Assembly (NCBI GenBank): GCA_037916975.1
Contig: JBAIWX010000009.1
Coordinates: 1 to 61,584, forward strand
Source of the DNA: Gemmatimonadales bacterium
GTDB taxonomy: Bacteria > Gemmatimonadota > Gemmatimonadetes > Gemmatimonadales > GWC2-71-9
Direction of reading: 5' to 3'
Length of the DNA stretch: 61,584 bases
Shown here: one piece after another, positions 29,445-44,313 of the stretch
Layout: every line of letters begins with the position of its first letter
Numbering within the stretch: the stretch's first letter is position 1
Notes under the pieces: generated by a model
What the model was told of the DNA's origin: nothing
The model's database searches: none
The model's input: only the letters and a program-made list of their open reading frames with translations
Program-made: the position numbers and the translations under genes

Positions 29445-29700
29445 AACAGCAGACCGGGTCGCCGTCCTCGACGCGCCGGTAGATGCACTCTACCACGAAC
29501 ACGTAGGAGATGCAGGTGCTGTAGGCGTAGATCATCCCGTTGCGCTCGATGAGGAACCCGTGGGTCCCGATGCAGGCGGCGTCGCAGGCCTTGGCCGCCC
29601 GTGCGGTTCGCGGGGTGACGACGAGGAGGGCGAGCGCGGCGAGCGCTGTGCAGGCCGCGAGGATCGTCGTGCGGCGCGGGGGTCGGTGGTCTCGGCGCAT
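29437..29700 (-). CDS. Small secreted cysteine-rich peptide (87-aa precursor, roughly 52-aa mature form with 6 Cys)
   Basis: ATG 29700 with GGAG about 10 nt upstream. It gives MRRDHRPPRRTTILAACTALAALALLVVTPRTARA / AKACDAACIGTHGFLIERNGMIYAYSTCISYVFVVECIYRRVEDGDPVCCYA. GC3 remains high. Confidence 0.6.
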   Translation of the reverse strand: MRRDHRPPRRTTILAACTALAALALLVVTPRTARAAKACDAACIGTHGFLIERNGMIYAYSTCISYVFVVECIYRRVEDGDPVCCYA

Positions 29701-29819
29701 GGCAAGAGTCTCCGGTCGGGACAGGGACACGTGGAGCGTGACGCCACACCCTGCACCGCCGCGCTCAAGCCCGGCTCAACCGACGCTCATGGCCGCGTAC
29801 CGCACCGCCCGGATGCGAG

Positions 29820-29847
29820 CACGGGGGCGCCGGCCGGCGCCCCCGTG
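29820..29847 (-). terminator. Perfect 28-nt GC palindrome just downstream of the P2 stop
   Basis: CACGGGGGCGCCGG/CCGGCGCCCCCGTG, located 27 nt after the P2 stop codon on the minus strand. Confidence 0.5.
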
Positions 29848-29873
29848 TCTCCGTTCCCTCCACCGCCCGCGCC

Positions 29874-31037
29874 TCAGGGGAGCGGATAGCGCCCCAGGTA
29901 CTGCAGGTCGTCCGCGTCCGAGCGCGCAACGTACACCGACTTCGCGCCGAACCCGACCACCCGGCTCTCCGCCGGCAGCACCACCTGCTTCACGAGCGCC
30001 CCCGACGCGTCGAAGACGTCGTAGGTCGGGGCGCTCCCCGCGGGCATCGAGCGGCGCACCCAGAGCTGTCCGTTCGGCGCCGCCAGCGTTGCGTTCTCGA
30101 CGAACGGCGGCTTCGACTCGGGGAAGTTGACCTCCGGCTCCTGCGGTGGCGGCGCGCTGCCCGGCGCCGGGCCGCCGCGCGTGATGGTCATCCGCCCGCG
30201 CGGGTTCCGCATGCGCTTGAGGATCTCCTCTTTGTCCGCGGCACCGACCTTGACCGGCTGGTAGCGGACCGCCGGTCCCGCCACCGCCTTCCCCGACGCC
30301 GGCACCCAGTCCACGTGGTAGTCGCCGACGCGCGCGATGCCCACGACCCCCTGGCCCGTCACCGCCCAGTCGTCCTGCGGCGCGAAGGGCTCCTGCCGGA
30401 TCATGATGGACCGCGCGGCCTGCCCGCCCGACACCTTGATGCCGAGGTTCGGCCCCTTGATCCGCGCGATCGTGTCCAGCGCGTTCGTCGCCCGGTTCCA
30501 CCGCAGCACCGGCACGGTGTCCGGCACCTGCGCCTGCGGGTTCACCTGCATCGTGCCGCCGCCGAAGGCGAAGGGGGAGCCCTGCAGGTAGAGCCGCCCC
30601 TGCTGGTCGGCACCCCTGAAGGAGACCATGCCGCCCAGCTTCTCGGGGAAGGGGATGTTGCCGGCGGCCTTCCCGTCGGGACCGACGCGGAAGAAGCGCC
30701 GCTGGATCGGGTCGGGGACCAGCGTCGTGTCGCCCGGCAGCGCGATGACGCCGCGCGGGAACTGGTACTCGTTCGGGCCCTGCCCCTCCCGCCCCACCTG
30801 CGTCACCGTGCCACTCGCGAAGTCGGCCACGGAGACCGTCTTCGCGAACACGTCCGCCACCACCACGCGGCCGTCCCGGAGCTCGCGCACGCCGGCGACC
30901 ATGTCGAACGGGTCGGCCAGTTCGGCCGCGGGCTTCGACAGCGTGACCACGGCGGGCTTCCCCTGCGCGTGCAGCGCGGCGGCGAGCAGCAGGATGGACG
31001 GCGACAGCACGGCGACCCGCACGGACGGGCGGCGCAT
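29874..31037 (-). CDS. Secreted beta-propeller-like hypothetical protein (P2), paralogue of 38089..39177 and 39201..40304
   Basis: The internal ATG at 31037 gives MRRPSVRVAVLSPSILLLAAALHAQG (signal peptide). Its C-terminal block GQLWVRRSMPAGSAPTYDVFDASGALVKQVVLP is shared with P3 and P4. Confidence 0.7.
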   Translation of the reverse strand: MRRPSVRVAVLSPSILLLAAALHAQGKPAVVTLSKPAAELADPFDMVAGVRELRDGRVVVADVFAKTVSVADFASGTVTQVGREGQGPNEYQFPRGVIALPGDTTLVPDPIQRRFFRVGPDGKAAGNIPFPEKLGGMVSFRGADQQGRLYLQGSPFAFGGGTMQVNPQAQVPDTVPVLRWNRATNALDTIARIKGPNLGIKVSGGQAARSIMIRQEPFAPQDDWAVTGQGVVGIARVGDYHVDWVPASGKAVAGPAVRYQPVKVGAADKEEILKRMRNPRGRMTITRGGPAPGSAPPPQEPEVNFPESKPPFVENATLAAPNGQLWVRRSMPAGSAPTYDVFDASGALVKQVVLPAESRVVGFGAKSVYVARSDADDLQYLGRYPLP

Positions 31038-31142
31038 CGGGACCTCGCAGGTTGGTGGGGCATCACGGCCCGCCACGCGGTCGGCAGGCTCGCTTGCTGG
31101 GATGCCTCGCCGCCCCGGAGGGTCGCAGGAGCCCGAACGCGA

Positions 31143-31172
31143 GGCGGCCCCGGGAAGTTTCCCGGGGCCGCC
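31143..31172 (-). terminator. Perfect 14+14 inverted repeat downstream of the small ORF and upstream of P2
   Basis: GGCGGCCCCGGGAA-gt-TTCCCGGGGCCGCC. Confidence 0.5.
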
Positions 31173-31221
31173 CTCAGCTCGATCCATCGCGCGTCCGCCG
31201 CGGTCGCCCAGGCCGCCGGGC

Positions 31222-31410
31222 TCACGGCTGGGGCTGCTGCGGAATCGCCGTCCCGCCGCCCGATTCCCGCGCCGGCCTGAGGAGGAGGACCGTCGGCGCG
31301 CCGGGCCCGAGCGCCCCCGGCCCGGGGACCCGCACCACCCCCGCCACGCGCCCGCGTTCGTCGCGGACCTCGGCCACGGCGATGCCGTTCGGGTTCGTCC
31401 GGTGCGTCAT
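31222..31410 (-). CDS. Small ORF (62 aa) forming a self-contained unit divergent from the ECF sigma operon
   Basis: MTHRTNPNGIAVAEVRDERGRVAGVVRVPGPGALGPGAPTVLLLRPARESGGGTAIPQQPQP. A strong SD is present (CCCGAGGAGGACCCC-ATG). An ECF-like promoter lies upstream and a perfect palindrome 50 nt downstream. Confidence 0.4.
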   Translation of the reverse strand: MTHRTNPNGIAVAEVRDERGRVAGVVRVPGPGALGPGAPTVLLLRPARESGGGTAIPQQPQP

Positions 31411-31472
31411 GGGGTCCTCCTCGGGTCTCGGGTCCATCCGGTCCGGGCGGCGCCCCGGCCGCCCACACTTCC

Positions 31473-31499
31473 TGAGATGCATCCAATCCCGTGAAGGTT
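31473..31499 (-). promoter_or_regulatory. ECF-type promoter candidate (site A) for the small ORF
   Basis: The minus strand reads CGCAACCTT-CACGGGATTGGATGCA(16)-TCTCA, located in a locally AT-richer patch. Confidence 0.4.
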
Positions 31500-31557
31500 G
31501 CGTAAGGGCCTCCCCCACCCGGCCGGTCGGCCAGGCCCAGGGGGCCCCCCCCCACGC

Positions 31558-31585
31558 AACCCTATTCGGCGGGGGCGGTGTCAGA
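31558..31585 (+). promoter_or_regulatory. ECF-type promoter candidate (site C), probably the autoregulated promoter of the sigma/anti-sigma operon
   Basis: GCAACCCT-ATTCGGCGGGGGCGGTG(17)-TCAGA, ending 38 nt upstream of the GTG start at 31624. Confidence 0.4.
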
Positions 31586-31623
31586 GGGACGTCACGCAGG
31601 CCGTACCACCCGCGGGGATCACA

Positions 31624-32157
31624 GTGGACGAACCGGAACTGATCGCCCGCACCCTCGCGGGAGACCCGGCGGCGGAACGGGCGCTGTTCGAGGCGCACGT
31701 GGACCGGGTCTACCGGCTCGCGTACCGGATCACGGGCGATCCGGACGTGGCGCAGGACTGTGCGCAGGACACCTTCATCCGCGCCTTCCAGCGCCTCGGG
31801 ACCTTCCGGGGCGATTCGAAGCTCGGCACCTGGCTCGGAGCCATCGCCATCTCCACCGCGCTCAATGCGGTGCGGAGCCGGAAGCGGGGGGAGCGGTTCA
31901 GCGCCCCCCTCGACGAGGCGGTCGAGTCGGGGCAGCTCCCCGTCGCCGCGGACCCGGACCTCCGGGACCGGCTCCATGCGGCGATCGACGGCCTCCCCGA
32001 CGGCTACCGGACGGTGTTCCTCCTGCACGACGTGGAGGGCTACACCCACGAGGAGATCGGGCAGCTCCTCGGCGTGCAGTCCGGGACCTCGAAGGCCCAG
32101 CTGTTCCGCGCCCGCGCGAAGCTGCGCGACGCGCTCGCGGATTTCGCGCTCGGCTGA
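31624..32157 (+). CDS. ECF (group IV) RNA polymerase sigma factor
   Basis: GTG 31624. It carries LFEAHVDRVYRLAYRITGDPDVAQDCAQDTFIRAF (region 2) and YRTVFLLHDVEGYTHEEIGQLLGVQSGTSKAQLFRARAKLR (region 4). Confidence 0.9.
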   Translation: MDEPELIARTLAGDPAAERALFEAHVDRVYRLAYRITGDPDVAQDCAQDTFIRAFQRLGTFRGDSKLGTWLGAIAISTALNAVRSRKRGERFSAPLDEAVESGQLPVAADPDLRDRLHAAIDGLPDGYRTVFLLHDVEGYTHEEIGQLLGVQSGTSKAQLFRARAKLRDALADFALG

Positions 32158-32176
32158 GCGCGCGAGGAGACGAGAG

Positions 32177-32905
32177 ATGAGCGACACCCCGCAGGACGAG
32201 GCCCCGCTGGACCCCCGGCTCCAGGAGCTGGCGCGGAGCTACAACGCGCCGCCCCCGCCGCCGCGCGCGGCGATCTGGGAGGCGGTCCGCGCGGCGCGCG
32301 AGGCGGAACGCACCGGCCGCACGGCCGCTCCGGCCGGGACGTCGGGTCCGGCGGCGCCGGGCGGCGCCGACGTGCTCCCGCTCGAGCGGCGTGGCCCGCG
32401 GACGCGGCGCCTCGCGCCCTGGGCGCTCCCCCTCGCCGCCGCGGCGCTGCTCGCCGTCGGCATCGGGATCGGGCGCCGCATGGGCCGCGGCCCGGTCGGG
32501 ACGCCGGTCGCCGTGGCGCCCGCTCCCGCCGCGGGGCAGCCGAGTCCTGCGCTCGAGGCGGCCGCGATCGCGCACCTGCGCCAGGCCGAGACGTACCTCA
32601 CCCTCTTCCGCGCGTCGGTGGGCGGGCCGGAGGAGACGGGGGCGCTGCCGGTGCGCACCGCGCGCGAGCTCCTCGCGAGCAACCGCCTCCTCCTCGACTC
32701 CCCGGTCCGGAACGACCCGCGCCTCGCGCCGCTGCTCGAGGACCTCGAGCTCGTGCTCGCGCAGATCGCGCAGCTCGGCGGCACGCCGGGCCGGACCGAC
32801 CTCGACCTGATCACCAGCGACCTCGACCATGGCGACGTCCTCGCGCGGCTGCGCGGGGCGGTGCCCGCCGCCACCCGGCGGCCGATTCCCCAGGGAGTGC
32901 TCTGA
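32177..32905 (+). CDS. Anti-sigma factor (single-pass membrane protein)
   Basis: ATG 32177 lies 20 nt after the sigma stop. There is one TM segment (LAPWALPLAAAALLAVGIGIG) and a periplasmic helical C-terminal part. Confidence 0.65.
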   Translation: MSDTPQDEAPLDPRLQELARSYNAPPPPPRAAIWEAVRAAREAERTGRTAAPAGTSGPAAPGGADVLPLERRGPRTRRLAPWALPLAAAALLAVGIGIGRRMGRGPVGTPVAVAPAPAAGQPSPALEAAAIAHLRQAETYLTLFRASVGGPEETGALPVRTARELLASNRLLLDSPVRNDPRLAPLLEDLELVLAQIAQLGGTPGRTDLDLITSDLDHGDVLARLRGAVPAATRRPIPQGVL

Positions 32906-34515
32906 TGTCCCGCGCCCTCGCGTCCCTCGTGCTCCTCGCCGCCGCGCCGCTCCCCGCGCAGGTGGTGGCCCCGACGCCCCCGGCCGCGCCCGGCACCTGG
33001 ACGGTGCCCAGCGCGCCGCTGGCGCTCGCGCCGATGGCCCCGCGCCTCGCGGCGATCACCGCACGGGGAGAGCGGCTCGCCCCGCTCGCGGCACTGGCGG
33101 CCGTGGAGGGCGCCGCCGCGCCGGAGCGCACCCCGCCCGCCGCCTGGCTGCAGGGCGACCCGGCCGACTCCCTCTACCGCGCCGCGCGGCAGCTCCTCGC
33201 GCGCGGGCGGTACGCGGACGCGGCGAACGCATTCCGCGAGGTGCCCCGGCGCTACCCGCGCTCGGGCTACGTGGCGGAGTCGTACTACTGGCACGCCTTC
33301 GCGCTCCAGCGCCTGGGAGGCACGACCAACCTGCGCGTGGCGCTCGCCTCGCTCGAGCAGCAGCGCAGGGCGCTCCCGGCGCGCGGCGAGGACGCCGAGC
33401 GCAAGCGTTCGGAGAACGAGGCGCTCGCCGCGCGGATCCGCGCGCAGCTCGCCTCGCAGGGCGATGCCGACGCCGCGGCCGAGGTGGCGGAGGCAGCCGA
33501 GGCCGCCGCGGCGCCCGAACCCCCCGAGCCGCCCGTGGCGGTCACCGCGAGCGGGCGTGCGCCGCGGCCCCCGCGCCCCCCGCGGCCGCCCCGGGGCGGC
33601 GTGACCGTGCACGACGGCGACGACGACGCCTGCGACAACGAGGACGACGTGGCGACGGCGGCGCTGCAGGGGCTGATGCAGATGGACAGCGAGCGCGCGA
33701 TGCCGGTGCTCCGTAAGGTGCTCGCGCGGCGCGACCCGGGCTCCTACTGCCTGCGGCGGCGCGCGGTGTTCATCGTGGCGCAGCAGCACGGCGAGGGGAC
33801 GGAGCGCACGCTGCTCGAGGTGGCGCGGACCGACCCCGACGCCGGGGTGCGCGGGCAGGCGGTGTTCTGGCTGTCGCAGGTGCAGGGGCCGGCGGCGGTG
33901 GCGGCGCTCGACTCGATCCTCCGCACCTCGAAGGACTCGGCGGTGCAGGAGAAGGCGATCTTCGCGATCGCGCAGCAGCAGGACCCGAAGGCGGCCGACC
34001 TGCTGCGCGACTACGCCGCGCGCGACGGCGCGCCGGAGGAGCTCCGCGCGCAGGCCATCTTCTGGCTCGGCCAGCGCCGCGAGCCCGTGAGCACCGCGTT
34101 CCTGCGCGACCTGTACGGGAAGCTCCGGAACGAGGAGCTCAAGCGGCGGATCCTCTTCGCCGTCTCGCAGGGCGGCGACGAGGGGGCGGGGGCCTGGCTC
34201 GCGGAGATCGCGCGGAACCGCGCGGAGCCGATCGAGGTCCGCAAGCAGGCGCTCTTCTGGGCGGGCCAGCGCGGCGCCTCCACGGCGGAGATCGCGACGC
34301 TGTACGCGCAGCTCGACGACCCGGAGATGAAGCGCCAGGCGGTGTTCGTGCTCGCGCAGCGGCGCGACCGCGCCGCGGTGGACCAGTTGATCACGATCGC
34401 GAAGACGGAGAAGGACCCGGAGATCCGCCGCACCGCGATCTTCTGGCTCGGCCAGAGCCGCGACCCGCGGGCCGCCGAGGCGCTCGAGCAGTTCCTGACG
34501 GGAGAGCAGAAGTGA
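32905..34515 (+). CDS. Secreted TPR/HEAT-repeat protein (HEAT-1)
   Basis: The ATG overlaps the anti-sigma stop by 1 nt. It has a signal peptide, a YbgF-like TPR segment, an acidic/Pro-rich linker, then 8 repeats carrying A(V/I/L)Fxxx(Q), such as AVFWLSQ and AIFWLGQ. Confidence 0.8.
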   Translation: MSRALASLVLLAAAPLPAQVVAPTPPAAPGTWTVPSAPLALAPMAPRLAAITARGERLAPLAALAAVEGAAAPERTPPAAWLQGDPADSLYRAARQLLARGRYADAANAFREVPRRYPRSGYVAESYYWHAFALQRLGGTTNLRVALASLEQQRRALPARGEDAERKRSENEALAARIRAQLASQGDADAAAEVAEAAEAAAAPEPPEPPVAVTASGRAPRPPRPPRPPRGGVTVHDGDDDACDNEDDVATAALQGLMQMDSERAMPVLRKVLARRDPGSYCLRRRAVFIVAQQHGEGTERTLLEVARTDPDAGVRGQAVFWLSQVQGPAAVAALDSILRTSKDSAVQEKAIFAIAQQQDPKAADLLRDYAARDGAPEELRAQAIFWLGQRREPVSTAFLRDLYGKLRNEELKRRILFAVSQGGDEGAGAWLAEIARNRAEPIEVRKQALFWAGQRGASTAEIATLYAQLDDPEMKRQAVFVLAQRRDRAAVDQLITIAKTEKDPEIRRTAIFWLGQSRDPRAAEALEQFLTGEQK

Positions 34516-35279
34516 GCACGCGCGCGGTGCTCGTGGCGGCGCTGGCCCTCGCGGCCGGCGCGCGCCCCGCGGCGGCGCAGTCGCTCGCCGAGCGGCTCCG
34601 CCAGGTGGGCACCGGCCCGGTGCGCTTCAGCTTCGCCGCGCGGCCGGACGTCTGCGGCAACGGCGAGAACATCTCGTGGGGCCGCGGCCGGGACCGCGAC
34701 TGGGCAGCGGACTGCGTCGCCGGCCCGGTGCGCGTCTCGCGCGAGCTCGCGCGCGGCACGCTCGTGCGGCTCCGCACGCGGGTCGGCGGCCGCTGGACGG
34801 CGGCCGCCGCGGGCCCCGACCTCGGCCTGGTCCCGGCGCGCGAGGCGGCGGCCTGGTTCCTCGCGCAGGCGGAGGGCGCGGGCCCGAAGGGCGAGGACGC
34901 CATCCTCCCCGTCATCCTCGCCGACAGCGTGGAGGCGTGGCCGCGACTCCTCGACCTCGCGCGGAACCCCGGCGCACCCGCACGCGTCCGGAAGAGTGCC
35001 CTCTTCTGGGTCGGACAGGCCGCGGCCGAGGAGGCCACGGCCGGCCTCGCCGAGGTGGCGGGCGACGCCGGCGCCGAGCGCGAGGTGCGCGAGGCGGCGG
35101 TGTTCGCGCTGTCGCAGCGGCCCGCGGGCGAGGGCGTGCCGGCGCTGCTCCGCGTCGCGCGCACCGACCGCGACCCGAAGGTGCGCCGCTCGGCGATCTT
35201 CTGGCTCGGGCAGGGCGGCGACCCGCGCGCGGTCGCGTTCTTCGAGGAGGTGCTCACCACCCGCGGCGGAGGACGCTGA
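34512..35279 (+). CDS. Secreted HEAT-repeat protein (HEAT-2)
   Basis: GTGA overlap with HEAT-1. Signal peptide MSTRAVLVAALALAAGARPAAAQ. Three repeats of the same type are present: ALFWVGQ, AVFALSQ and AIFWLGQ. Confidence 0.8.
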   Translation: MSTRAVLVAALALAAGARPAAAQSLAERLRQVGTGPVRFSFAARPDVCGNGENISWGRGRDRDWAADCVAGPVRVSRELARGTLVRLRTRVGGRWTAAAAGPDLGLVPAREAAAWFLAQAEGAGPKGEDAILPVILADSVEAWPRLLDLARNPGAPARVRKSALFWVGQAAAEEATAGLAEVAGDAGAEREVREAAVFALSQRPAGEGVPALLRVARTDRDPKVRRSAIFWLGQGGDPRAVAFFEEVLTTRGGGR

Positions 35280-35280
35280 C

Positions 35281-35307
35281 AACCTTTTCCGCGCGGCCGG
35301 CGTCGAA
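35281..35307 (+). promoter_or_regulatory. ECF-type promoter candidate (site B) upstream of the DUF5916-like gene
   Basis: GACAACCTT-TTCCGCGCGGCCGGCG(16)-TCGAA, starting right after the HEAT-2 stop and ending 62 nt upstream of ATG 35370. Confidence 0.4.
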
Positions 35308-35369
35308 TGAGGGAATGCGCTCCCGAGCGGGAGCACTCCACCCGACGATGACGACGAGGTCCCGGCCGC

Positions 35370-38051
35370 ATGATCGCCGCCCTGCTCCTCCAGGTCTCCC
35401 TGGCCGCAGCCGCCGCGCGCGGCGCCTCACCGGCGCCCGCTGCGGCGGCTGCGCGTTCCGACGCCCCGACCGCCGTCCGCGCCGCGCGCTCCGCCGGCGG
35501 CATCGCGGTGGACGGCGACCTCTCGGACGCGGCGTGGCAGCAGGCCGCGCCGATCGCGAACTTCGTGCAGCGCGAGCCCGCCGAGGGCGCGGCACCGACC
35601 GAGCGCACCACGGTGCGCATCCTCTTCGACGACGACGCGATCTACGTGGCCGCGGAGCTCCACGACACGCAGCCCGACTCGGTGCGCGCGCTGCTCGCGC
35701 GCCGCGACACGCGCTCGCCGAGCGACGCCTTCTACGTCTTCCTCGACTCCTACCGCGACCGGCGCAGCGGCTTCTACTTCGGCGTGAACGCCGCTGGCAC
35801 GCAGTACGACGGCACGCTCTTCAACGACGACTGGGACGACGACACCTGGGACGGCGTCTGGCAGGCCGCGGTGCGCCGCACGCCGGAGGGCTGGGCCGCC
35901 GAGCTGCGCATCCCGTACTCGCAGCTCCGCTTCCGCGCCGGTGCCGAGCAGGAGTGGGGCATCAACTTCAAGCGCGACATCGCGCGGAAGAACGAGTACG
36001 ACTACCTCGTCTACACGCCGCAGAACGGGAGCGGCTTCGTCTCGCGGTTCCCGGCGCTGGTGGGCCTCACGGGCGTCCACGCGCCGCGGCGGCTCGAGGT
36101 GCTCCCCTACGTCACCGGCCGCGCCGAGTTCCTGCGGCACGACGCCGGCGACCCGTACAACGACGGCTCGCGCTACCGCCCGGGCGTGGGCGCCGACGTG
36201 AAGATGGGCCTGGGGCCGAACCTCACCCTCTCGGGGACGGTGAACCCCGACTTCGGCCAGGTGGAGGTGGACCCGGCGGTGGTCAACCTGAGCGACGTCG
36301 AGGTCTTCTTCCAGGAGCGGCGGCCGTTCTTCGTCGAGGGCGCCAACCTCTTCGAGTTCGGCTACGGCGGGTCGAACAACTTCTGGGGCTTCAACTGGGG
36401 CGGGCCGCAGTTCCTCTACACGCGCCGCATCGGCCGGGCGCCGCGCGGCAGCCTCCCCGACGCGTCCTTCTCCGACGTGCCGCAGGGGACGCACATCCTG
36501 GGCGCCGCGAAGGTCTCGGGCCGGGTGGGGTCGTGGAACGTGGGGACGCTCTCCGCGCTCACGCAGCGGGAGTTCGCGCGCCTCACCGCGCTCGACGAGG
36601 CGGGCGGGCCCGCGCGCCAGTGGCGCGCCGAGGTGGAGCCGCTCGCGAGCTACAACGTGATCCGCGCGCAGAAGGAGGTGGACGGCGGCCGCCAGGGGAT
36701 CGGCGTCCTCGGCACGGCCACGCAGCGCTTCTTCGGCGACCGCCGGCTCGACGCCGAGATGAACCGCGGCGCCTACGCCGTGGGCCTCGACGGGTGGACC
36801 TTCCTCGATCGCGGGCGCGTCTGGGTGCTGAACGGCTGGGCCGGCTCGAGCCTCGTGACGGGGACGCCCGAGCGGATGCTCGCGCTCCAGCGGAACAGCA
36901 CCCACTACTTCCAGCGCCCCGACGCGCGGCACGTGCGCGTGGACTCGGCGGCGACCTCCCTCTTCGGCTGGGGCGGGCGGCTCACGCTCAACAAGCAGAA
37001 GGGGAACACGATGGTGAACGCGGCGCTCGGCGTCATCGACCCGGGCCTCGAGCTCAACGACCTGGGCTTCGCGCCGCGCACCGACATGGTCAACGCCCAC
37101 GCGGTGGTCGGCTACCGCTGGACGAAGCCGACCCGCTGGTACCAGCGGGCCAGCGTGAACACCGCCCTCTTCAGCTCGTGGGACTTCGGCGGCAACAACA
37201 CCTGGGCGGGGGTCTTCCACACCGGGAACCTGACGCTCAGGAACTTCTGGCGCCCGCGCTGGCGCGTCGCGGTGAACCCGCGGACGGTGAACGTGCGCGC
37301 GACCCGGGGCGGCCCGGCCATCCTGAACCAGCCCGGGGTCGAGCTGGGCGGCGGCTTCAGCTCCGACGACCGGAAGCTCCTCACCTTCGGGGTGGAGCTC
37401 TCGCTCAACCGGTTCGCCAACGGCGCGGACCGGAGCTGGGGGGTGGAGACCTGGGCGGAGTGGAAGCCGACGCAGCGCCTGCAGCTCATGTTCGGCCCGA
37501 GCCTCTTCCGGAACGTGGACGGGGCGCAGTACGTCGGCACCTTCGCCGACCCGCTCGCGACCGCCACGTACGGGAACCGCTACGTCTTCGGCGACCTGCG
37601 CCAGACCACGCTCTCGGCGAACGTGCGGCTCAACTGGATCTTCACGCCGAAGCTCTCGCTCGAGCTCTTCACGCAGCCGTTCGTCTCCTCGGGCGAGTAC
37701 GCGACGCTCAAGGAGCTCCGGCGGCCGCGCAGCTTCGACTTCCTGCGCTACGGCACCGAGGGCTCGACCTGGGACCGGGCCTCGGGGACGGTGGATCCCG
37801 ACGGCGCGGGGCCCGCGGCGCCGATCGGCGTGGGGAACCCGGACTTCACCTTCGCCTCGCTCCGCGGGAACGCCGTGCTCCGCTGGGAGTACGCGCCGGG
37901 CTCCACGCTCTTCCTCGTCTGGACGCACAACCGGAGCGCGGCGAACGCCGTCGGCCGCTTCGCGCCGGGGCGCGCCTTCGACGACCTCTTCGCCACGCCG
38001 GCGGACAACGTCCTGATGGTCAAGTTCACCTACTGGTGGAACCCCTCCTGA
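35370..38051 (+). CDS. CBM9-like / DUF5916 domain outer-membrane protein
   Basis: 893 aa with a signal peptide. It carries IAVDGDLSDAAWQQAAPIANFVQREPAEGAAPTERTTVRILFDDDAIYVAAEL, FYFGVNAAGTQYDG, and a long beta-rich C-terminus ending FTYWWNPS. Confidence 0.8.
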   Translation: MIAALLLQVSLAAAAARGASPAPAAAAARSDAPTAVRAARSAGGIAVDGDLSDAAWQQAAPIANFVQREPAEGAAPTERTTVRILFDDDAIYVAAELHDTQPDSVRALLARRDTRSPSDAFYVFLDSYRDRRSGFYFGVNAAGTQYDGTLFNDDWDDDTWDGVWQAAVRRTPEGWAAELRIPYSQLRFRAGAEQEWGINFKRDIARKNEYDYLVYTPQNGSGFVSRFPALVGLTGVHAPRRLEVLPYVTGRAEFLRHDAGDPYNDGSRYRPGVGADVKMGLGPNLTLSGTVNPDFGQVEVDPAVVNLSDVEVFFQERRPFFVEGANLFEFGYGGSNNFWGFNWGGPQFLYTRRIGRAPRGSLPDASFSDVPQGTHILGAAKVSGRVGSWNVGTLSALTQREFARLTALDEAGGPARQWRAEVEPLASYNVIRAQKEVDGGRQGIGVLGTATQRFFGDRRLDAEMNRGAYAVGLDGWTFLDRGRVWVLNGWAGSSLVTGTPERMLALQRNSTHYFQRPDARHVRVDSAATSLFGWGGRLTLNKQKGNTMVNAALGVIDPGLELNDLGFAPRTDMVNAHAVVGYRWTKPTRWYQRASVNTALFSSWDFGGNNTWAGVFHTGNLTLRNFWRPRWRVAVNPRTVNVRATRGGPAILNQPGVELGGGFSSDDRKLLTFGVELSLNRFANGADRSWGVETWAEWKPTQRLQLMFGPSLFRNVDGAQYVGTFADPLATATYGNRYVFGDLRQTTLSANVRLNWIFTPKLSLELFTQPFVSSGEYATLKELRRPRSFDFLRYGTEGSTWDRASGTVDPDGAGPAAPIGVGNPDFTFASLRGNAVLRWEYAPGSTLFLVWTHNRSAANAVGRFAPGRAFDDLFATPADNVLMVKFTYWWNPS

Positions 38052-38088
38052 CCGGGTGACGGCCGGCCGGGCGGCTATATTGTCGCCC

Positions 38089-39177
38089 ATGCCGAGCCAC
38101 CCCCTCCGCCGTGCCGGGGCCGGCGCGCTCGCCGCGCTGGCCCTCGCTGCCTGCGGTCCGTCGAGCCCGCCCCCGCCCGAGGTGACCCTGCCCGACGGCG
38201 GCGACACCGTGGTCGTCCGCTTCGCCGAGGCGCGCGACGCGGCGTGGCTCGGGGGGAACCGCTGGGCGGTCCTCCTCCCGGGCGGGCCCGAGGTGGAGGT
38301 GGTGGACCTCGCCGCCGGCACGGCCGTCCCGGTGGGCGGGGCGCTCAAGAACCCCGTCAGCCTCTTCCGCGCCGGCGACTCCCTCTACGTCGCCGACGTC
38401 TTCCCGCCGCGGCTCACCGTGCACGGCCTGGACGGCGCGCTCACGCGCAGCCTCTCGGCCCCCGCGATCGTGCGCGGCGCGCTGCCCCGGGCCCGCGACG
38501 CCAGGGGCAACTTCTACGTCGAGCTCCGCCCGGCGCCGGGCCCCGACGGGAGCGGCAACCGCGACAGCGCCGTGGTCCTCCGCCTGCCCGCCGACCTCGC
38601 GCGCGCCGACACCGTGGCGCGCCTGGCACCGCTCGACCTCGCCAAGGTGCAGTCCGCAACGGGCGAACGGTTCGAGCGCCGCGTCTTCAGCGGCGTGGAC
38701 CGCTGGGGGGTGCGGCCCGACGGCACCGTCTGGGTCGCCCGCGTGTACCACAACCGGCTCGACCGGATCGCCCCCGACGGGACCACGCGCCGCGGCGACG
38801 GCCTCCCCGACCGCGTCCTCGAGGTGACGCGCGCCGACCGCGAGGCCTTCGTGCGGAAGTTCCCCGCGGAGCTCCGGGCGAGCGCCGAGCAGCTGCCCTT
38901 CGCGCCGACCAAGGCGGCGTTCGACGTCGCGTTCACCGACGCGCGCGGCAACACCTGGCTCGAGCGGAGCCGCGCGGTGACCGACACGCTGCAGGGCTAC
39001 CTCGTGGTGGACCCCGACGGCCGTCTCGCCGGCATCGTGGACCTCCGCGGCGACGGCCACGTCATCGGCGCCGGCGACGGCACCGTGCTCGTGGCGGAGT
39101 ACTCGCCCCTCGGCACCCGGCTCCGCCAGGTGGCGGTGCCGCCCCTCGTCCCGGCCGCACCGACGAAGCGGCCGTAG
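38089..39177 (+). CDS. Lipoprotein P3, paralogue of P2 and P4
   Basis: ATG 38089 gives MPSHPLRRAGAGALAALALAAC (lipobox). TATATT lies 7 nt upstream of the ATG, so the transcript may be leaderless. Confidence 0.7.
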   Translation: MPSHPLRRAGAGALAALALAACGPSSPPPPEVTLPDGGDTVVVRFAEARDAAWLGGNRWAVLLPGGPEVEVVDLAAGTAVPVGGALKNPVSLFRAGDSLYVADVFPPRLTVHGLDGALTRSLSAPAIVRGALPRARDARGNFYVELRPAPGPDGSGNRDSAVVLRLPADLARADTVARLAPLDLAKVQSATGERFERRVFSGVDRWGVRPDGTVWVARVYHNRLDRIAPDGTTRRGDGLPDRVLEVTRADREAFVRKFPAELRASAEQLPFAPTKAAFDVAFTDARGNTWLERSRAVTDTLQGYLVVDPDGRLAGIVDLRGDGHVIGAGDGTVLVAEYSPLGTRLRQVAVPPLVPAAPTKRP

Positions 39178-39200
39178 TTCCCGACGCCCCAGGAGATCGC

Positions 39201-40304
39201 GTGACCCCGAACCGCCTCGCTCCCCTCGCCCTCCTCGGCGCGGTGGCCATCGGCTGCGCCGCCACCGCGGAGAAGGCCGCCCCGCCCGTGACGCTCGCGC
39301 AGGACGCCGCGCTCGCCGCCACCTTCGGCGGGGTGAGCAACGTGGTCGAGCTCGCCGACGGGCGCGTCGCCTTCGCCGACACGAAGGACAAGCGCTTCCT
39401 CCTCGCCGACTTCGCGACCGGCAAGGTGGACACCGTGGGGACCCAGGTGGACTCGCTCGCGGGCGACGCCGCGGGCCAGTACAAGTTCCCCGGCGCCGTC
39501 GCACACCTGGCCGGCGACACCCTCGCCCTCGTGGACTTCGCCGCGACGCGCACCACGCTCTGGACCGACCGGGGCGCCTTCGCCCGCGTGCTCCCGCTCC
39601 CGGCGGTGGGCGGCGCCACCCCGGTGCTCACGTACGACCGGGCGGGCCACGGCTACAAGACCGACTTCACCGCGGTGCTGGGCGGCGGGGAGCCGGGCAC
39701 GCCGGTCCGCCCCGACAGCCTCGCCGTGCTCCGCATCTCGCTCGGGAACGGGGCGGTGGACACGGTGGCTCGGCTCAGCGCCCCCGAGTACGGCGACGCG
39801 ACGTTCGGCGAGCAGGTGCAGTCGGTCGCGAAGGTGTTCGGCCCCAACGACGCCTTCGGCGCCACCGCCGATGGCGCCGTCTGGGTGGCGCGGGCGCGCA
39901 GCTTCTCGGTGGACTGGCGCGCGCCCGACGGGACGTGGACCCGCGGGAAGCCGCACGCCTGGACGAAGGTGCCGGTGACGGAGGCGGACCGAGCGGCGGT
40001 GCTCGAGCGGCTCTACGCGCGCGGGCTCCCGAAGGGGGTCGAGGTCAAGTTCCCCTTCGCCGAGACGAAGCCCGCGTTCGAACTGGCGCTCACGCGCGCG
40101 ACGGGCGAGGTCTGGCTCCAGTACAGCCGCGCGAAGGACACCGACGCCGCGCGCTACGCGGTGTTCGGCCGGGACGGGGCGTTCGTGCGCGACGCCATCG
40201 CGCCCGCGGGCGTGCTGCTCGCGGGCGTGGGCGCGACGAAGGCGTACGGGGTGACGAAGACGGCGGACGGGCGGCGGCAGCTGGTGCGGCTCGCCGTGCC
40301 CTGA
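39201..40304 (+). CDS. Lipoprotein P4, paralogue of P2 and P3
   Basis: GTG 39201 follows AGGAG and gives VTPNRLAPLALLGAVAIGC (lipobox). It shares the C-terminal block GEVWLQYSRAKDTDAARYAVFGRDGAFVRDAIAP. Confidence 0.7.
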   Translation: MTPNRLAPLALLGAVAIGCAATAEKAAPPVTLAQDAALAATFGGVSNVVELADGRVAFADTKDKRFLLADFATGKVDTVGTQVDSLAGDAAGQYKFPGAVAHLAGDTLALVDFAATRTTLWTDRGAFARVLPLPAVGGATPVLTYDRAGHGYKTDFTAVLGGGEPGTPVRPDSLAVLRISLGNGAVDTVARLSAPEYGDATFGEQVQSVAKVFGPNDAFGATADGAVWVARARSFSVDWRAPDGTWTRGKPHAWTKVPVTEADRAAVLERLYARGLPKGVEVKFPFAETKPAFELALTRATGEVWLQYSRAKDTDAARYAVFGRDGAFVRDAIAPAGVLLAGVGATKAYGVTKTADGRRQLVRLAVP

Positions 40305-40307
40305 CGC

Positions 40308-41030
40308 TCAGTCCATGATCGGCGGCGGGGCGTCGGGCGGCACCGGCGGCTCGCGGTCGGTCTTCCGGCGGTCGCGGCGCTGGCCCTCCTCGTACCAGCG
40401 CCGCGTGATCTCCCCCGCGAGGTCGCGGTTCCCGAGCCCGAAGGCGAGGCCGGCCGCGAGGGCCACGGCGCCGAGGATGAGCGTGAAGGCGCTCGTCACG
40501 ATCTCCTCGGCGACGCCCACCTGCTGCAGCGCCATGAACATCGCGATGAGCACCACGACGCCCTTCGCCACCTTGGCCACGGTGGGGACCCCGCTCACCG
40601 TCCCCGCCGAGGCGAGGATCACGGCGCGCACGAACTCGCCCACGATCATCCCCAGGATGACGATCACGATCCCCACGATGAGCGTGGGGATGAAGGCGAG
40701 CATCCGCCCGAAGGTCTCGTTGATGCTCTCGAGCCCGAGTGCCGCGCTCGCGAGGAGGATGACCACCAGCATCACGAGCCAGAACAGGAGGTTCGCGAAG
40801 GCGCGCACCGGGTCGAGGTGCGTGCCGGTCCGGACCACCACCTGGTCGAGTCCCTGCTCCTTCGCCACCCGGTTGAAGTCGAGCCGCTTGAGGGTCTGGT
40901 CGGCCCACTTCTGCAGCTGCCGCGCGAGCAGGTAGCCCGCGAGGAGGATGAGGAGCGCCGCCAGGAAGGCGGGCGCCACCTCGAGGATCTGCGCGCCGCC
41001 GGCGCGCAGCCGGTCCAGCAGCTCGTTCAC
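40308..41030 (-). CDS. Membrane protein with conserved-TM-helix repeats (MscS-associated TM_helix-like)
   Basis: GTG 41030 overlaps the upstream stop (GTGA). It has four TM segments, repeats ending LAFGLGNRDLAGEI, and a charged C-terminal tail. Confidence 0.6.
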   Translation of the reverse strand: MNELLDRLRAGGAQILEVAPAFLAALLILLAGYLLARQLQKWADQTLKRLDFNRVAKEQGLDQVVVRTGTHLDPVRAFANLLFWLVMLVVILLASAALGLESINETFGRMLAFIPTLIVGIVIVILGMIVGEFVRAVILASAGTVSGVPTVAKVAKGVVVLIAMFMALQQVGVAEEIVTSAFTLILGAVALAAGLAFGLGNRDLAGEITRRWYEEGQRRDRRKTDREPPVPPDAPPPIMD

Positions 41031-42064
41031 GTCGCCACCTCGATCACGAGTTTGCCCGCCTGCGCGCCCCGCGCCATGCGGGCGTACGCCTCGCGCGCCT
41101 GCGCGAGCGGCACCACGCCGTCCACCCTCGGCCGGAGCCTGCCCTCCCCCGCGAGCGCCGCGAGCGCGGCGAACTCCGCGCGGCTCCCCATCGTGCTGCC
41201 GAGGAGCGACCACTGGTGCCAGAAGAGCTTCCGCACGTCGAGCTGCACCATCGGCCCGCCGGTGGCGCCGCACGTGACTAGGCGGCCCCCGCGCCGGAGC
41301 GCGCGGAGCGAGCGCGTCCACGTCGGCTCGCCCACCGTCTCGACCACCACGTCGGCGCCGCGGTTCGCCGTGACCCGCCGCACCACGGCGAGCACGTCGC
41401 CGGTGGCGTGGTTGACCACGTGGTCCGCGCCGAGCGCCCGCGCGACGGCGAGCTTCGCGTCGTCGCCGCTCGTCGCGACGACGGTGGCGCCGAGGTGCTT
41501 CGCCACCTGCACCGCCGCCTGCGCCACGCCGCCACCCGCGCCCCACACGAGCACCGTCTCCCCGGCGGCGACGCGCGCCCGCGTCGCGAGCATCCGCCAC
41601 GCGGTGAGCGTCGCGAGCGGGAAGGCCGCCGCCTCCGCCCAGCTGAACCCGGCCGGCGCCGGCGCGAGGTTCGCCTCCGGCACCACGACGTAGTCGGCCA
41701 TCGTCCCGTGGCGGTGCTCCCCCAGGAGCTGGAAGGCGGGGCAGAGCGACTCCTCGCCCGCCCGGCACTCGGCGCAGGTGCCGCAGGAGAGGCCGGGGTT
41801 CAGCATCACGCGGTCGCCGGGACGCACCGCGGTCACCGCGCTCCCGACGGCGTCCACCACCCCCGCCCCGTCGGCGCCCACCACGTGCGGGAAGGCGTAC
41901 GCCACGCCCGGGAGGCCGTCGGCGACGAAGAGGTCGAGGTGGTTGAGCGCCGCGGCGTGCACGCGCACGCGCACGTCGTGCGGGCCGTCGAGCGCGGGGA
42001 CGGGGAGGTCCACCAGCGCGAGGTGCTCCGGCCCGCCGGTGGCGGTGAGCGCGAGCGCGCGCAT
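41027..42064 (-). CDS. Zinc-type alcohol dehydrogenase / quinone oxidoreductase (MDR superfamily)
   Basis: MRALALTATGGPEHLALVDLPVP, GADGAGVVDAVG, CGTCAECRAGEE, LVWGAGGGVAQAAVQVAK. Confidence 0.9.
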   Translation of the reverse strand: MRALALTATGGPEHLALVDLPVPALDGPHDVRVRVHAAALNHLDLFVADGLPGVAYAFPHVVGADGAGVVDAVGSAVTAVRPGDRVMLNPGLSCGTCAECRAGEESLCPAFQLLGEHRHGTMADYVVVPEANLAPAPAGFSWAEAAAFPLATLTAWRMLATRARVAAGETVLVWGAGGGVAQAAVQVAKHLGATVVATSGDDAKLAVARALGADHVVNHATGDVLAVVRRVTANRGADVVVETVGEPTWTRSLRALRRGGRLVTCGATGGPMVQLDVRKLFWHQWSLLGSTMGSRAEFAALAALAGEGRLRPRVDGVVPLAQAREAYARMARGAQAGKLVIEVAT

Positions 42065-42081: not shown

Positions 42082-44313
42082 TCACCGGAAGGCGGGCGAC
42101 TGCACCTGCTCGCCGGGCCGGAGGCGCACGGTGGCGGGCGCGGCGCCGGGCGTCGCCGCCTGGATCACGAGCGCGAAGCCGCCGGCGCCGCGCTCGGCGT
42201 CGCTCCGGGCGCTCACCCACGCGAGACGGCTCCCGTCGCGCGAGACGGCGAACCCCGTGACCGGCCGGTCGCTCGTGGCGAGCGTCACCGGCGCGACGCC
42301 GCCGGCGGGGCCGGCGAGGATCGCCGAGCTGCTCGTGCCGCGGTCCACCACCCACGCGAGCCGCCCGCCCGGCAGCCAGCGCGGCAGCCGCTCCCGCTCG
42401 GGGGTCGTGGTGAGGCGCCGCTCGTCGGCGCCGTCGATCCGGATGTCGTAGAGGTCGGCCCCGGAGGCGTCGCTCCGCACGAACGCGACCCGCGCGCCGT
42501 CGGGCGAGACGCTGGGCGACGTGGCACTCGCGGTCGGGGCGGTGAGCGGGCGGAGCCCCGTGCCGTCGGCCCCGACCACCCAGAGGCGGCTCGTGCCGCC
42601 GCGGGTGGAGCTGAAGACCAGCGCGGAGCCGTCGGGAAGCCACTGCGGCTCGCCGTCGAAGGCGGGATCGTCGGTCAGGCGGCGGCGGTTCGTGCCGTCG
42701 GCGTCCGCCACCCAGACGTCGTAGTTCCCGCCCTGGTTCGAGGTCCACGCGAGCCGGGTCCCGTCGGGCGAGAGGGCGGGCTGCACCGCGGTGGCGCCGT
42801 CGTCCAGCACGAGCCGGAGCGAGTCGGGGTTCGCGACGGTGAGGTCGTAGATCGCGGGCCGGCCGCCGCGGGTCGAGGCCACGAACAGGTCGCCGGTGAC
42901 GAACACCGGCACCTCGGCGCTCCGCCCCCACGGCGCGGTGGCGGTGATGGTGGCCCGGCCGCGGGTGCCGGCCTCGACGGAGCCGTCCGGCCGCACGCGC
43001 GCCACGCGTGGTTCGCTCGTCACCCAGCGGGCCCCCTCGAGCGGCCCGAGTTCCTTTCCGTCGGGGTCGAGGAGCCGCGCCGAGAGTTGCGCCGCGCCGT
43101 CGGGGGCGAGGCCGAGGCGCGCGGGGCGGATCGCGACGTCGGCGGGGACGACCTCGATCTCCCAGGTCGCGGGAGCGACGCCGGGGACCTTCGCGGTGAC
43201 GGTGGTGCGGCCGGCCGCGAGCCCGGTCAGTGCGCCGCGGGCCCGGTCGAACGCGACGAGCGCCGTGTCCCCCACGGTCCATGCGACCGTGGCCCCCGCC
43301 ACCGGCCGCCCGGCGGTGTCCACCGCCTGTGCGGAGAGGGTGCGGGTGCCCTGCACCGCGAGGCGGAGCGGCCCCTTGCTGAATGGGGGCGAGACCTCGA
43401 GTCCCGCCACGGCGGAGTAGACGGTGATGGGAATCCGGAGCGCGACGTCGGGCCCGACCATGACGGCGGCGGCCGTCCCCGGCGCGCGCCCGGCGACGAT
43501 CCCCTGCGGCGTCACGGTGGCGACGGCGGTATCGGAGCTCGTCCACGCGAAGCCGCCGCCCAGCGGGCGGTCACCCTGCGCGGGGACGATGGCGCGGATC
43601 GAGTCCACGTCCCCCACGCCGAGGCGGAGCTCGGTCCGCGTCACGCCGACGTCGGCGGGGACGACCTTCACGGTGGCCGTGGCGATGAGCCCCGCCGCGA
43701 GCGCCTGCACGACGCCGGTCCCCGCGGCCAGCGCCTCCACCGTCCCGGCGGCATCCACCCGGACGAGGGCGGGGTGGAGCGTGCGCCAGGTGACGGGGCC
43801 CGTCTCCGCCTCGCCGCCGTCCGCCCGGCGGGCGACGAGCCGGAGCGGCTGCCGTTCGCCGGGGATCAGCACGAGGGGCTGGGGCTCGAGCGCCAGCGAG
43901 ACGGGGCGGGTGGCGGCGCTCGGCCCGGTGACGGTCACGGTGATGGCCCCCCGCCGGGACCCGGCGATCGCCTCGATCCGCGCCGCACCGGGCCCGGTGG
44001 CGGTCACCGTCCCGTCCGGGGCCACCGTCGCCACCGCCGTGTCGGAGCTCGCGAAGGTGACCTTCACGTCGAGGAGGACGTTGCCGTCCTTGTCGAAGGC
44101 GAGGGCGGAGACCGGCTGCCGGGCCCCGGTCGCGAGCGCCAGGGACGGCGGCGTCACCCGGACCTCCGCCACGGGGGCCTGGGCGGAGGCGGGCCGGGGG
44201 CCAAGCACGGCAAGCCCGGCCGTCACGAGCAGGAGGAGTCGGCGCGGGGTCGGGGTCACTGGCGGGCTCGGCGTGGCGGCGGGGTTCGAGGTGCGGGAAG
44301 TATACGCGCCCAC
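42082..44313 (-). CDS. Secreted protein with five Big_2 Ig-like domains plus a C-terminal TolB-like (PD40) beta-propeller
   Basis: Five repeats of the form ...SSDTAVATV.PDGTVTA.G.G. A PD40-like repeat follows: SPDGTRLAWTSNQGGNYDVWVADADGTNRRRLT. An alternative GTG start at 44259 is possible. Confidence 0.8.
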   Translation of the reverse strand: MGAYTSRTSNPAATPSPPVTPTPRRLLLLVTAGLAVLGPRPASAQAPVAEVRVTPPSLALATGARQPVSALAFDKDGNVLLDVKVTFASSDTAVATVAPDGTVTATGPGAARIEAIAGSRRGAITVTVTGPSAATRPVSLALEPQPLVLIPGERQPLRLVARRADGGEAETGPVTWRTLHPALVRVDAAGTVEALAAGTGVVQALAAGLIATATVKVVPADVGVTRTELRLGVGDVDSIRAIVPAQGDRPLGGGFAWTSSDTAVATVTPQGIVAGRAPGTAAAVMVGPDVALRIPITVYSAVAGLEVSPPFSKGPLRLAVQGTRTLSAQAVDTAGRPVAGATVAWTVGDTALVAFDRARGALTGLAAGRTTVTAKVPGVAPATWEIEVVPADVAIRPARLGLAPDGAAQLSARLLDPDGKELGPLEGARWVTSEPRVARVRPDGSVEAGTRGRATITATAPWGRSAEVPVFVTGDLFVASTRGGRPAIYDLTVANPDSLRLVLDDGATAVQPALSPDGTRLAWTSNQGGNYDVWVADADGTNRRRLTDDPAFDGEPQWLPDGSALVFSSTRGGTSRLWVVGADGTGLRPLTAPTASATSPSVSPDGARVAFVRSDASGADLYDIRIDGADERRLTTTPERERLPRWLPGGRLAWVVDRGTSSSAILAGPAGGVAPVTLATSDRPVTGFAVSRDGSRLAWVSARSDAERGAGGFALVIQAATPGAAPATVRLRPGEQVQSPAFR

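Follow-up and report, generated by a model that had tools for sequence, protein, structure and literature searches.

A stretch of 61,584 nucleotides (nt) from a Gemmatimonadales bacterium (contig JBAIWX010000009.1 of assembly GCA_037916975.1), referred to below as the window, was analysed around a cluster of genes for a sigma factor of the extracytoplasmic function (ECF) type, a putative anti-sigma factor (gene 2), two exported HEAT-repeat proteins (HEAT-1 and HEAT-2), a DUF5916 outer-membrane protein and two lipoproteins (L1 and L2, genes 6 and 7). The reading favoured here, with moderate confidence, is an ECF sigma signalling unit with the DUF5916 gene as its predicted target, flanked by a separate unit of propeller proteins. 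It is carried by the co-conservation of the first four genes among Gemmatimonadota and by a conserved ECF-type promoter motif that precedes both the sigma operon and DUF5916. The coordinates of the features are listed in Table 1.

Conservation of the four-gene operon

Homologues of the window proteins were searched by tblastn, and the operon loci compared were the best 80, all from Gemmatimonadota; an alignment-based scan using one genome per species gave at least 582 genomes with a relative of HEAT-1. HEAT-1 and HEAT-2 were present in 80 of the 80 loci, the anti-sigma gene in 77 and the sigma gene in 73, with the four found together wherever the contig allows. Sigma, anti-sigma, HEAT-1 and HEAT-2 are a strictly co-conserved, Gemmatimonadota-wide operon. 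The co-conservation of genes anticipated in a first-pass annotation of the window, which had been made from the sequence by a model and had proposed one seven-gene envelope module, held for these four. More than 2740 homologues of HEAT-1 were found, and all of those with an organism name belong to Gemmatimonadota.

The gene after HEAT-2 varies. For the 59 loci with at least 3 kb of sequence beyond HEAT-2, it was DUF5916 in 11, L1 in 10 and some other gene in ~36. Two DUF5916 orthologues (P0150 and P0185) lie directly 3' of the four-gene operon on Mb-scale contigs. Elsewhere (L027, L029, L080, L016, and L071), the co-directional genes after HEAT-2 encode CcdA (DsbD_TM) and a TlpA-like redoxin, DUF218 and NUDIX proteins with a second ECF sigma factor, or an S41 or M48 peptidase, and the mostly envelope-related nature of these genes hints at an envelope-stress role. 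At positions 11487-11663 of locus L018, a fragment of the DUF5916 C-terminus (66% identity) remains between HEAT-2 and L1. Because this remnant persists, DUF5916 is taken to have been deleted in the L018 lineage, and direct succession of HEAT-2 by L1 may be a derived state. The more distant divergent genes (gyrA, an M28-like peptidase gene, and a TolC-like gene, the last two identified by eye) differ from locus to locus and were treated as no more than synteny.

A promoter motif shared by the sigma operon and DUF5916

The motif GCAACCCTTT-N12-GTGTCAGAG, which has a typical ECF layout, was found ~68 nt 5' of the sigma start in 60 of 62 loci; the spacer of the window site is 1 nt longer than usual. 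Autoregulation of the sigma operon from this AAC...CGT-type promoter is predicted. A weight matrix was trained on sigma-upstream sites only and used to scan both strands of the 61.6-kb window, yielding two sites, one upstream of sigma and one upstream of DUF5916. In shuffled windows, 0.06 matches are expected at 16.2 bits, the score of the latter. The first base of this second site is the final base of the HEAT-2 stop codon, the site lies 62 nt 5' of the DUF5916 ATG, and GCAACC(C/T)TTT-N12-CGTCTAAG occurs at the same place in 12 of 12 DUF5916 orthologues following HEAT-2. The promoter-like motif that the first-pass annotation had pointed out in the gap between HEAT-2 and DUF5916 is real and is conserved in orthologues.

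Eighty DUF5916 loci were also fetched from metagenomes (39-58% identity), nearly all of them unlinked to sigma or HEAT genes. A site of at least 16 bits was located no more than 300 nt upstream of DUF5916 in 18 of 73 such loci, many of the sites scoring 23-30 bits, against 10 elsewhere in these loci over 1.69 million positions (a roughly 150-fold enrichment). In the 162 loci taken together, 97 sites with scores of 18 bits or more had a downstream open reading frame (ORF), which belonged to the sigma operon in ~66 cases, to DUF5916 in 24, to HEAT-2 in 1, and to other genes in ~6. A matrix match inside HEAT-1 of L004 (10892-10920) was rejected as a false positive in which the codons of AIFWLGQ (GCA ATC TTT TGG CTG GGG CAG) mimic the -35 element. 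Because a shared conserved motif precedes both sigma and DUF5916, DUF5916 is the main predicted target besides the operon itself, and judged from these sites it is a likely target of the sigma factor, which would recognise the motif in the window. The earlier proposal that the unit controls an outer-membrane protein is backed, as a prediction, by this promoter pair.

HEAT proteins and related arrangements in other lineages

HEAT-1 comprises a signal peptide, a YbgF/BamD-like TPR region, a Pro-rich linker and eight alphaRep-like HEAT/PBS repeats that carry an A-x-F-W-L-G-Q signature. Its PDB profile matches are alphaRep, YbgF (2xev), and BamD, and C243 and C282 are invariant. HEAT-2 comprises a signal peptide, a Cys-containing N-terminal domain and three HEAT repeats, which are paralogous to the last repeats of HEAT-1 (45% identity with the HEAT-1 C-terminus). 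Among 69 HEAT-2 orthologues, C48 is kept in 96% and C68 in 100%; the leader cleavage site is also conserved. Tandem two-helix repeats of ~31 amino acids (aa), the mark of the HEAT_2/PBS-lyase HEAT-like family, are present in both proteins. HEAT-1 has 8 copies of the pattern [RKQE]xx[AIL][VIL]FxxxQ at a spacing of 30-33, and HEAT-2 has 3 at a spacing of 32-33, in agreement with the 8 and 3 copies reported at first pass. Nothing on periplasmic HEAT proteins with ECF systems was found in the literature searched, and the main text of the paper reclassifying the ECF sigma factors does not mention HEAT repeat proteins.

Related gene sets were found at other base compositions. L090 (61% G+C) has an ECF sigma factor, an anti-sigma factor of zf-HC2-transmembrane-HEAT architecture, a DUF4097 protein and DUF5916; L091 (36% G+C) has the same first two genes followed by an unassigned 377-aa protein and DUF5916. 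L086 (53% G+C) has DUF5916, an ECF sigma factor, a zinc-binding anti-sigma (ZAS) factor and a signal peptide-TPR-HEAT protein. L089 (52% G+C) has two HEAT proteins and DUF5916 with a 16-bit motif. In L109 (6246-10637, 38% G+C), DUF5916 comes last, after genes for an ECF sigma factor, a 189-aa protein and a DUF4252 protein. That HEAT-1 and HEAT-2 would work with the anti-sigma factor is best supported by the fusions in which HEAT repeats are joined to the periplasmic end of such a factor. The suggestion that the HEAT proteins feed the anti-sigma factor is accordingly backed as far as these zinc-finger fusions beside DUF5916 go; direct contact is the part that we infer.

The putative anti-sigma factor and the sigma factor

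In the gene 2 product, a conserved stretch of ~40 aa at the N-terminus, a single transmembrane helix and a helical periplasmic domain of ~110 aa, also conserved, were recognised; the gene lies between sigma and HEAT-1 in 77 of 80 loci. Unlike ZAS class I factors, it has zero Cys, the HxxxCxxC motif is absent and no zf-HC2 match was found. A PDB profile search gave no meaningful match, and RseA_N, RseA_C, and RseB/MucB were not found in genes 2-4 using Pfam and NCBIfam (up to an E value of 1 for gene 2). Over its transmembrane and periplasmic part, the gene 2 product shares homology with the protein that follows sigma in L086 (hhalign 95.8%, E = 8e-9), which carries a canonical HxxxCxxC motif, HVSGCPEC. 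This homology supports, short of proof, the assignment of gene 2 as an anti-sigma factor. A comparison with the L090 anti-sigma factor gave a match in the transmembrane helix only and was set aside. Gene 2 is described as a putative sigma-binding inhibitor on the strength of its position, its topology and its periplasmic homology to a ZAS protein.

The sigma factor has the sigma-2 and sigma-4 domains only (Pfam Sigma70_r2, 1.1e-17; Sigma70_r4_2, 1.3e-17) in 177 aa, as do ECF (group 4) sigma factors of ~180 aa, and scores 96 bits against NCBIfam sigma70-ECF TIGR02937 (cut-off 42.9). The nearest solved structures are M. tuberculosis SigE, 6in7_B (which we take to be P. aeruginosa AlgU), SigW, and RpoE. 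The group to which it belongs may already be catalogued among the ECF groups. Against the NCBIfam sigma_PG0214 model it reaches 81 bits, below the cut-off of 130; the uncharacterised P. gingivalis PG0214-0218 cluster is maybe a distant relative and is a distant lead only.

The DUF5916 protein

Gene 5 matches CBM9_1 (PF06452, 5e-08, 33.5 bits) followed by DUF5916 (PF19313, 1.8e-56, 192.6 bits), both above cut-off and in the order typical of the family. In the AlphaFold2 model (predicted local distance difference test, pLDDT, 79; predicted TM-score, pTM, 0.75), a CBM9-like N-terminal beta-sandwich is joined to a barrel of ~26 strands. Using Foldseek, the N-terminal part matched CBM9 1i82 with a TM-score of 0.72, and the barrel matched MtrB (6r2q_B) best, then TonB-dependent transporters and SlpA, all at low TM-scores; the likeness to TonB-dependent transporters is generic (0.25-0.39, normalised to target length). 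The most conserved stretch, NPDFGQVEVDPAVVNLSDVE..FF.ERRPFF (residues 292-321), lies in a low-confidence loop. DUF5916 was not mentioned in the literature searched. A perfect hairpin, GCTCCC-GAGC-GGGAGC, is present at 35319-35334 (+) in the predicted 5' leader of the gene.

Gene calls, junctions, and export signals

The G+C content is ~75% across the window, so raw ORF lists are noisy, and gene calls rest on a frame plot of G+C at third codon positions (GC3) together with the translations. Both support seven co-directional genes, as first annotated, with a divergent upstream neighbour and a convergent downstream neighbour. In order, the first two genes are separated by 19 nt, the next junctions are overlaps of 1 nt and 4 nt, and the remaining gaps measure 90, 37 and 23 nt; the two overlaps and the 90-nt gap agree with the earlier values, and the gap between sigma and anti-sigma is 19 nt where 20 had been given. 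The earlier statement that every product after sigma is exported or membrane-bound fits the leaders, lipoboxes and anti-sigma transmembrane segment found, all of them sequence features. N-terminal hydrophobic leaders with an A-x-A|Q site, kept in orthologues, suggest export of the HEAT proteins, as do their conserved Cys pairs. Genes 2, 6, and 7 had no family match in Pfam or NCBIfam. Consensus scans of 31200-40500 found neither a sigma-70 promoter nor an intrinsic terminator.

Soil and root metatranscriptome assemblies (runs X5, X7, and X8, compared with window positions 29800-41800) contained near-identical contigs (0-3 mismatches) covering the small divergent ORF described below (31216-31432) and parts of anti-sigma, HEAT-1, HEAT-2, DUF5916, L1, and up1. 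In these samples the source organism, or a strain nearly identical to it, seems to be transcriptionally active.

Table 1. Features of the window with their positions, strand and the basis of assignment.
Feature	Position	Strand	Basis
ECF sigma factor, 177 aa, RpoE/SigE/SigW type	31624-32157	+	Pfam, NCBIfam
ECF-type promoter of the sigma operon (GCAACCCTATTCGGCGGGGGCGGTGTCAGAG)	31556-31586	+	Motif, 29.3 bits
Putative single-pass anti-sigma factor, 242 aa (gene 2)	32177-32905	+	Position, topology, periplasmic homology
HEAT-1, 536 aa	32905-34515	+	Pfam HEAT_2 1.6e-29, NCBIfam
HEAT-2, 255 aa	34512-35279	+	Pfam HEAT_2 2.6e-11
Second ECF-type promoter (ACAACCTTTTCCGCGCGGCCGGCGTCGAAT)	35279-35308	+	Matrix, 16.2 bits
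DUF5916 outer-membrane protein, 893 aa (gene 5)	35370-38051	+	Pfam, AlphaFold2, Foldseek
TATATT -10 box, 7 nt before the L1 ATG	38076-38081	+	
L1 lipoprotein, 362 aa, six-bladed beta-propeller	38089-39177	+	Lipobox LAAC (LALAAC), AlphaFold2
L2 lipoprotein, 367 aa, L1 paralogue	39201-40304	+	Lipobox AIGC (VAIGC)
Divergent ECF-like promoter (GCAACCTTCACGGGATTGGATGCATCTCAG)	31472-31501	-	Comparative motif
Small ORF, 62 aa, without signal peptide	31222-31410	-	GAGGAGG Shine-Dalgarno, hidden Markov model
up1, third L1/L2 paralogue, type I signal peptide	29874-31037	-	Homology to L2

Propeller lipoproteins and neighbouring genes

L1 and L2 share 31% identity (E = 4e-22) and each has a lipobox of the [LVI][ASTG][GA]C type, as expected of the paralogous lipoproteins they had been called; C22 is at least 90% conserved in the L1 family. 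L2 has a GTG start and an AGGAG Shine-Dalgarno sequence. AlphaFold2 predicts L1 (pLDDT 92) to be an NHL/SGL/Drp35-type beta-propeller with six blades, and Foldseek matched the model to Drp35, Brat-NHL, and SGL propellers (TM-score 0.55-0.65, E ~1e-9); Pfam SGL reached 21 bits, below cut-off. The L1 family has ~1120 members. None of the 120 listed has a functional name, and the small number of organism names given are all Gemmatimonadales. L1/L2 is limited to one Gemmatimonadales subclade, and neither gene was present in any of the 80 metagenomic DUF5916 loci.

The L1 promoter was recognised only through comparison of orthologues. A TAnnnT box (TACATT, TAGATT, TACCTT) lies 5-9 nt 5' of the start in 22 of 24 L1 orthologues, whichever gene precedes. 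Because this spacing of the -10 box excludes a ribosome-binding site, it suggests that L1 is transcribed leaderless from a housekeeping-type promoter. The best-supported reading of L1/L2 is a separate neighbouring unit with its own promoter. The -10 box and the patchy distribution speak against the earlier view of the lipoproteins as an accessory part of the module, and with the gene after HEAT-2 variable, the grouping of all seven genes in one module was not borne out.

On the other side of the sigma gene, a third paralogue, up1 (32% identity with L2, E = 4e-36; start codon M51), and a small divergent ORF were added to the earlier annotation. An up1 orthologue is divergent from sigma in L072, and in the window up1 is downstream of the small ORF. 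The small ORF, between up1 and sigma, resembles the last blade of the L1, L2, and up1 propellers (the hidden Markov model also matches their C-termini) and was found by this model divergent from sigma in 24 of 64 loci. Its median ratio of nonsynonymous to synonymous substitution rates was 0.39 (173 pairs), a sign of moderate purifying selection. It is preceded by a divergent ECF-like motif, GCAACC(C)TTC-N11-12-GCATCTCA; of 64 loci, 22 carry GCAAC-N15-18-[GC]CATC upstream of sigma on the minus strand, 19 of them with the small ORF. The small ORF with up1 is probably a further target of the sigma factor.

Upstream of up1, up2 (28332-29444, -) encodes a 370-aa lipoprotein with the lipobox LLTGC and was rejected as a fourth paralogue (hhalign 15.6%). 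An 87-aa ORF (29437-29700, -) has a signal peptide and a mature peptide of ~50 aa with 8 Cys; it had no Pfam family and could encode a bacteriocin-like or other secreted peptide. Beyond L2 lie two convergent genes, for a membrane protein with a mechanosensitive-channel helix (40308-41768, -) and for a Big_2 and PD40 propeller protein (42082-44313, -).

Proposed mechanism and alternative explanations

In the proposed mechanism, the promoter upstream of sigma would drive translationally coupled synthesis of the sigma factor, the single-pass anti-sigma factor and the two exported HEAT proteins. In the resting state, the sigma factor would be held by the short cytoplasmic N-terminus of the anti-sigma factor, whose conserved periplasmic domain HEAT-1 (TPR and eight repeats) and HEAT-2 would bind or shield. 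An envelope cue of some kind would alter the HEAT/anti-sigma complex, and the anti-sigma factor would then be inactivated, probably by regulated proteolysis. The freed sigma factor would transcribe its own operon, DUF5916 (from 35279-35308) and probably the small ORF with up1. The main output would be DUF5916, with its ~26-strand barrel and CBM9-like N-terminal domain, and L1/L2 would be neighbours in one subclade, served by a leaderless-type promoter of their own. The path from signal to sigma release is modelled on RseA/RseB, CnrY/CnrX, and FecR/FecA.

Several findings weigh against this reading. The DUF5916 site of the window ranks last in its class, scoring 16.2 bits and having CGTC for TGTC, many distant DUF5916 genes are without the motif, and DUF5916 is not the next gene in most operon loci (other genes in ~36/59). 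Of the metagenomic DUF5916 loci, 45 extend 3 kb or more upstream, and only 5 of these have an ECF sigma gene there. A recognisable anti-sigma domain was not found in gene 2 by Pfam or by the PDB profile search, and its conserved N-terminus of ~40 aa is shorter than a class I anti-sigma domain. Read-through from DUF5916 into L1/L2 is possible across the 37-nt gap, in which no terminator was found by the consensus scans. The metatranscriptome contigs are sparse and represent genes only, with neither 5' ends nor operon structure.

A general sigma-E-like envelope stress response, with the HEAT proteins acting like RseB and DUF5916 being one of many regulon members that is nearby by chance, is considered somewhat unlikely. 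The resemblance of the sigma factor to SigE, 6in7_B (presumably AlgU), SigW, and RpoE, the spread of the operon across the phylum and the envelope-related genes after HEAT-2 elsewhere (CcdA and TlpA-like redoxin, DUF218, S41, M48) would fit such a response; however, the motif is almost confined to the regions upstream of sigma and DUF5916 within the ~2.2 Mb of loci scanned, which leaves room for a wider regulon elsewhere in the genomes, and RseA/RseB domains were not found in genes 2-4. We regard as unlikely a cell-surface-signalling loop in which DUF5916 is both sensor and output, so that a ligand at the barrel or CBM9-like domain would signal by way of the HEAT proteins to the anti-sigma factor, as in FecA-FecR, and induce more DUF5916. 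ECF, HEAT, and DUF5916 genes do occur together in at least four gene orders and lineages, the 200-aa N-terminal domain of DUF5916 precedes the barrel and by normal barrel topology would start in the periplasm, and a sigma factor, an anti-sigma factor and an outer-membrane protein under a sigma promoter follow the general logic of FecIRA. Against this loop, STN, Plug, TonB-box, and FecR domains were not found in the window proteins, and DUF5916 lies beside the nearly universal four-gene core in only ~20% of loci.

The first-pass reading of all seven genes as one envelope module, with L1/L2 as accessory lipoproteins of the DUF5916 barrel, is judged quite improbable. The genes are co-directional with short gaps, the order HEAT-2, (DUF5916), L1, L2 recurs in ~20 loci of one subclade, and the small ORF under the ECF-like promoter, followed by up1, derives from the propeller family; BtuG-type propeller lipoproteins also cap outer-membrane barrels in Bacteroidota, with weak Foldseek matches here (TM-score ~0.4). 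On the other hand, L1/L2 are absent from ~36 of 59 operon loci as well as from 80 of 80 metagenomic DUF5916 loci, the L1 -10 box is the same after HEAT-2, DUF5916 or another gene, and the ECF motif was not found before L1. The convergent downstream genes, dn1/dn2, are as syntenic as L1/L2 in the same subclade, a sign of clade-level synteny.

The preferred reading, a four-gene ECF signalling unit with DUF5916 as its predicted target, could be part of something broader. It is tentatively suggested, as a possibility that we still consider rather doubtful, that sigma, anti-sigma, periplasmic HEAT solenoid and DUF5916 make up an undescribed, TonB-independent signalling system of several phyla, in which HEAT arrays (fused or as separate TPR-HEAT proteins) would sense and the CBM9-bearing ~26-strand barrel would be the dedicated output and possibly the input. 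Gemmatimonadota are abundant in soil and little studied, and nearly all of the phylum appears to share this ECF system. For DUF5916, a family of more than 7000 members, a first regulatory handle is obtained, and periplasmic HEAT-repeat proteins gain a concrete role open to testing. Cultured Gemmatimonas would allow direct tests of the predicted promoter and of its two or three local targets, and the sigma/promoter pair is a possible orthogonal expression part.

Comparison with known systems

With RpoE-RseA-RseB-RseC of E. coli (AlgU-MucA-MucB in Pseudomonas), the window set would share an autoregulated ECF sigma factor of the same broad clade, a single-pass anti-sigma factor, exported accessory proteins and a coupled operon, as predicted here. 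It differs in that the accessory proteins are TPR-HEAT solenoids, RseA_N, RseA_C, MucB and RseB were not found among its proteins, the promoter is GCAACCCTTT-N12-GTGTCAGAG and the predicted target is the DUF5916 barrel. With FecI-FecR-FecA and the ECF/SusC-like systems of Bacteroides, the predicted common ground is a sigma factor, an anti-sigma factor and a barrel gene with a sigma-dependent promoter and an extra N-terminal domain. In contrast to FecIRA, no FecR, STN, Plug or TonB_dep_Rec domain was found in the window proteins by Pfam, the DUF5916 barrel of ~26 strands is nearer to MtrB than to a 22-strand transporter, and HEAT proteins are interposed. CnrH-CnrY-CnrX of Cupriavidus metallidurans combines a short cytoplasmic anti-sigma segment with a separate periplasmic sensor encoded in the operon, a layout that the window set would share. 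Sequence relationship to it was not detected, and the window anti-sigma factor has its own 110-aa periplasmic domain and HEAT/TPR partners. The zf-HC2 ZAS factors with C-terminal HEAT repeats (L090 and L091) share an ECF sigma factor upstream, DUF5916 downstream and HEAT repeats in the periplasm, whereas the window has its HEAT repeats on proteins of their own and its anti-sigma factor is without HxxxCxxC. The defining domains of RseA/RseB and of FecR/FecA were not found, and the set is accordingly described as an uncharacterised variant of ECF envelope signalling rather than placed with these families or with CnrY/CnrX.

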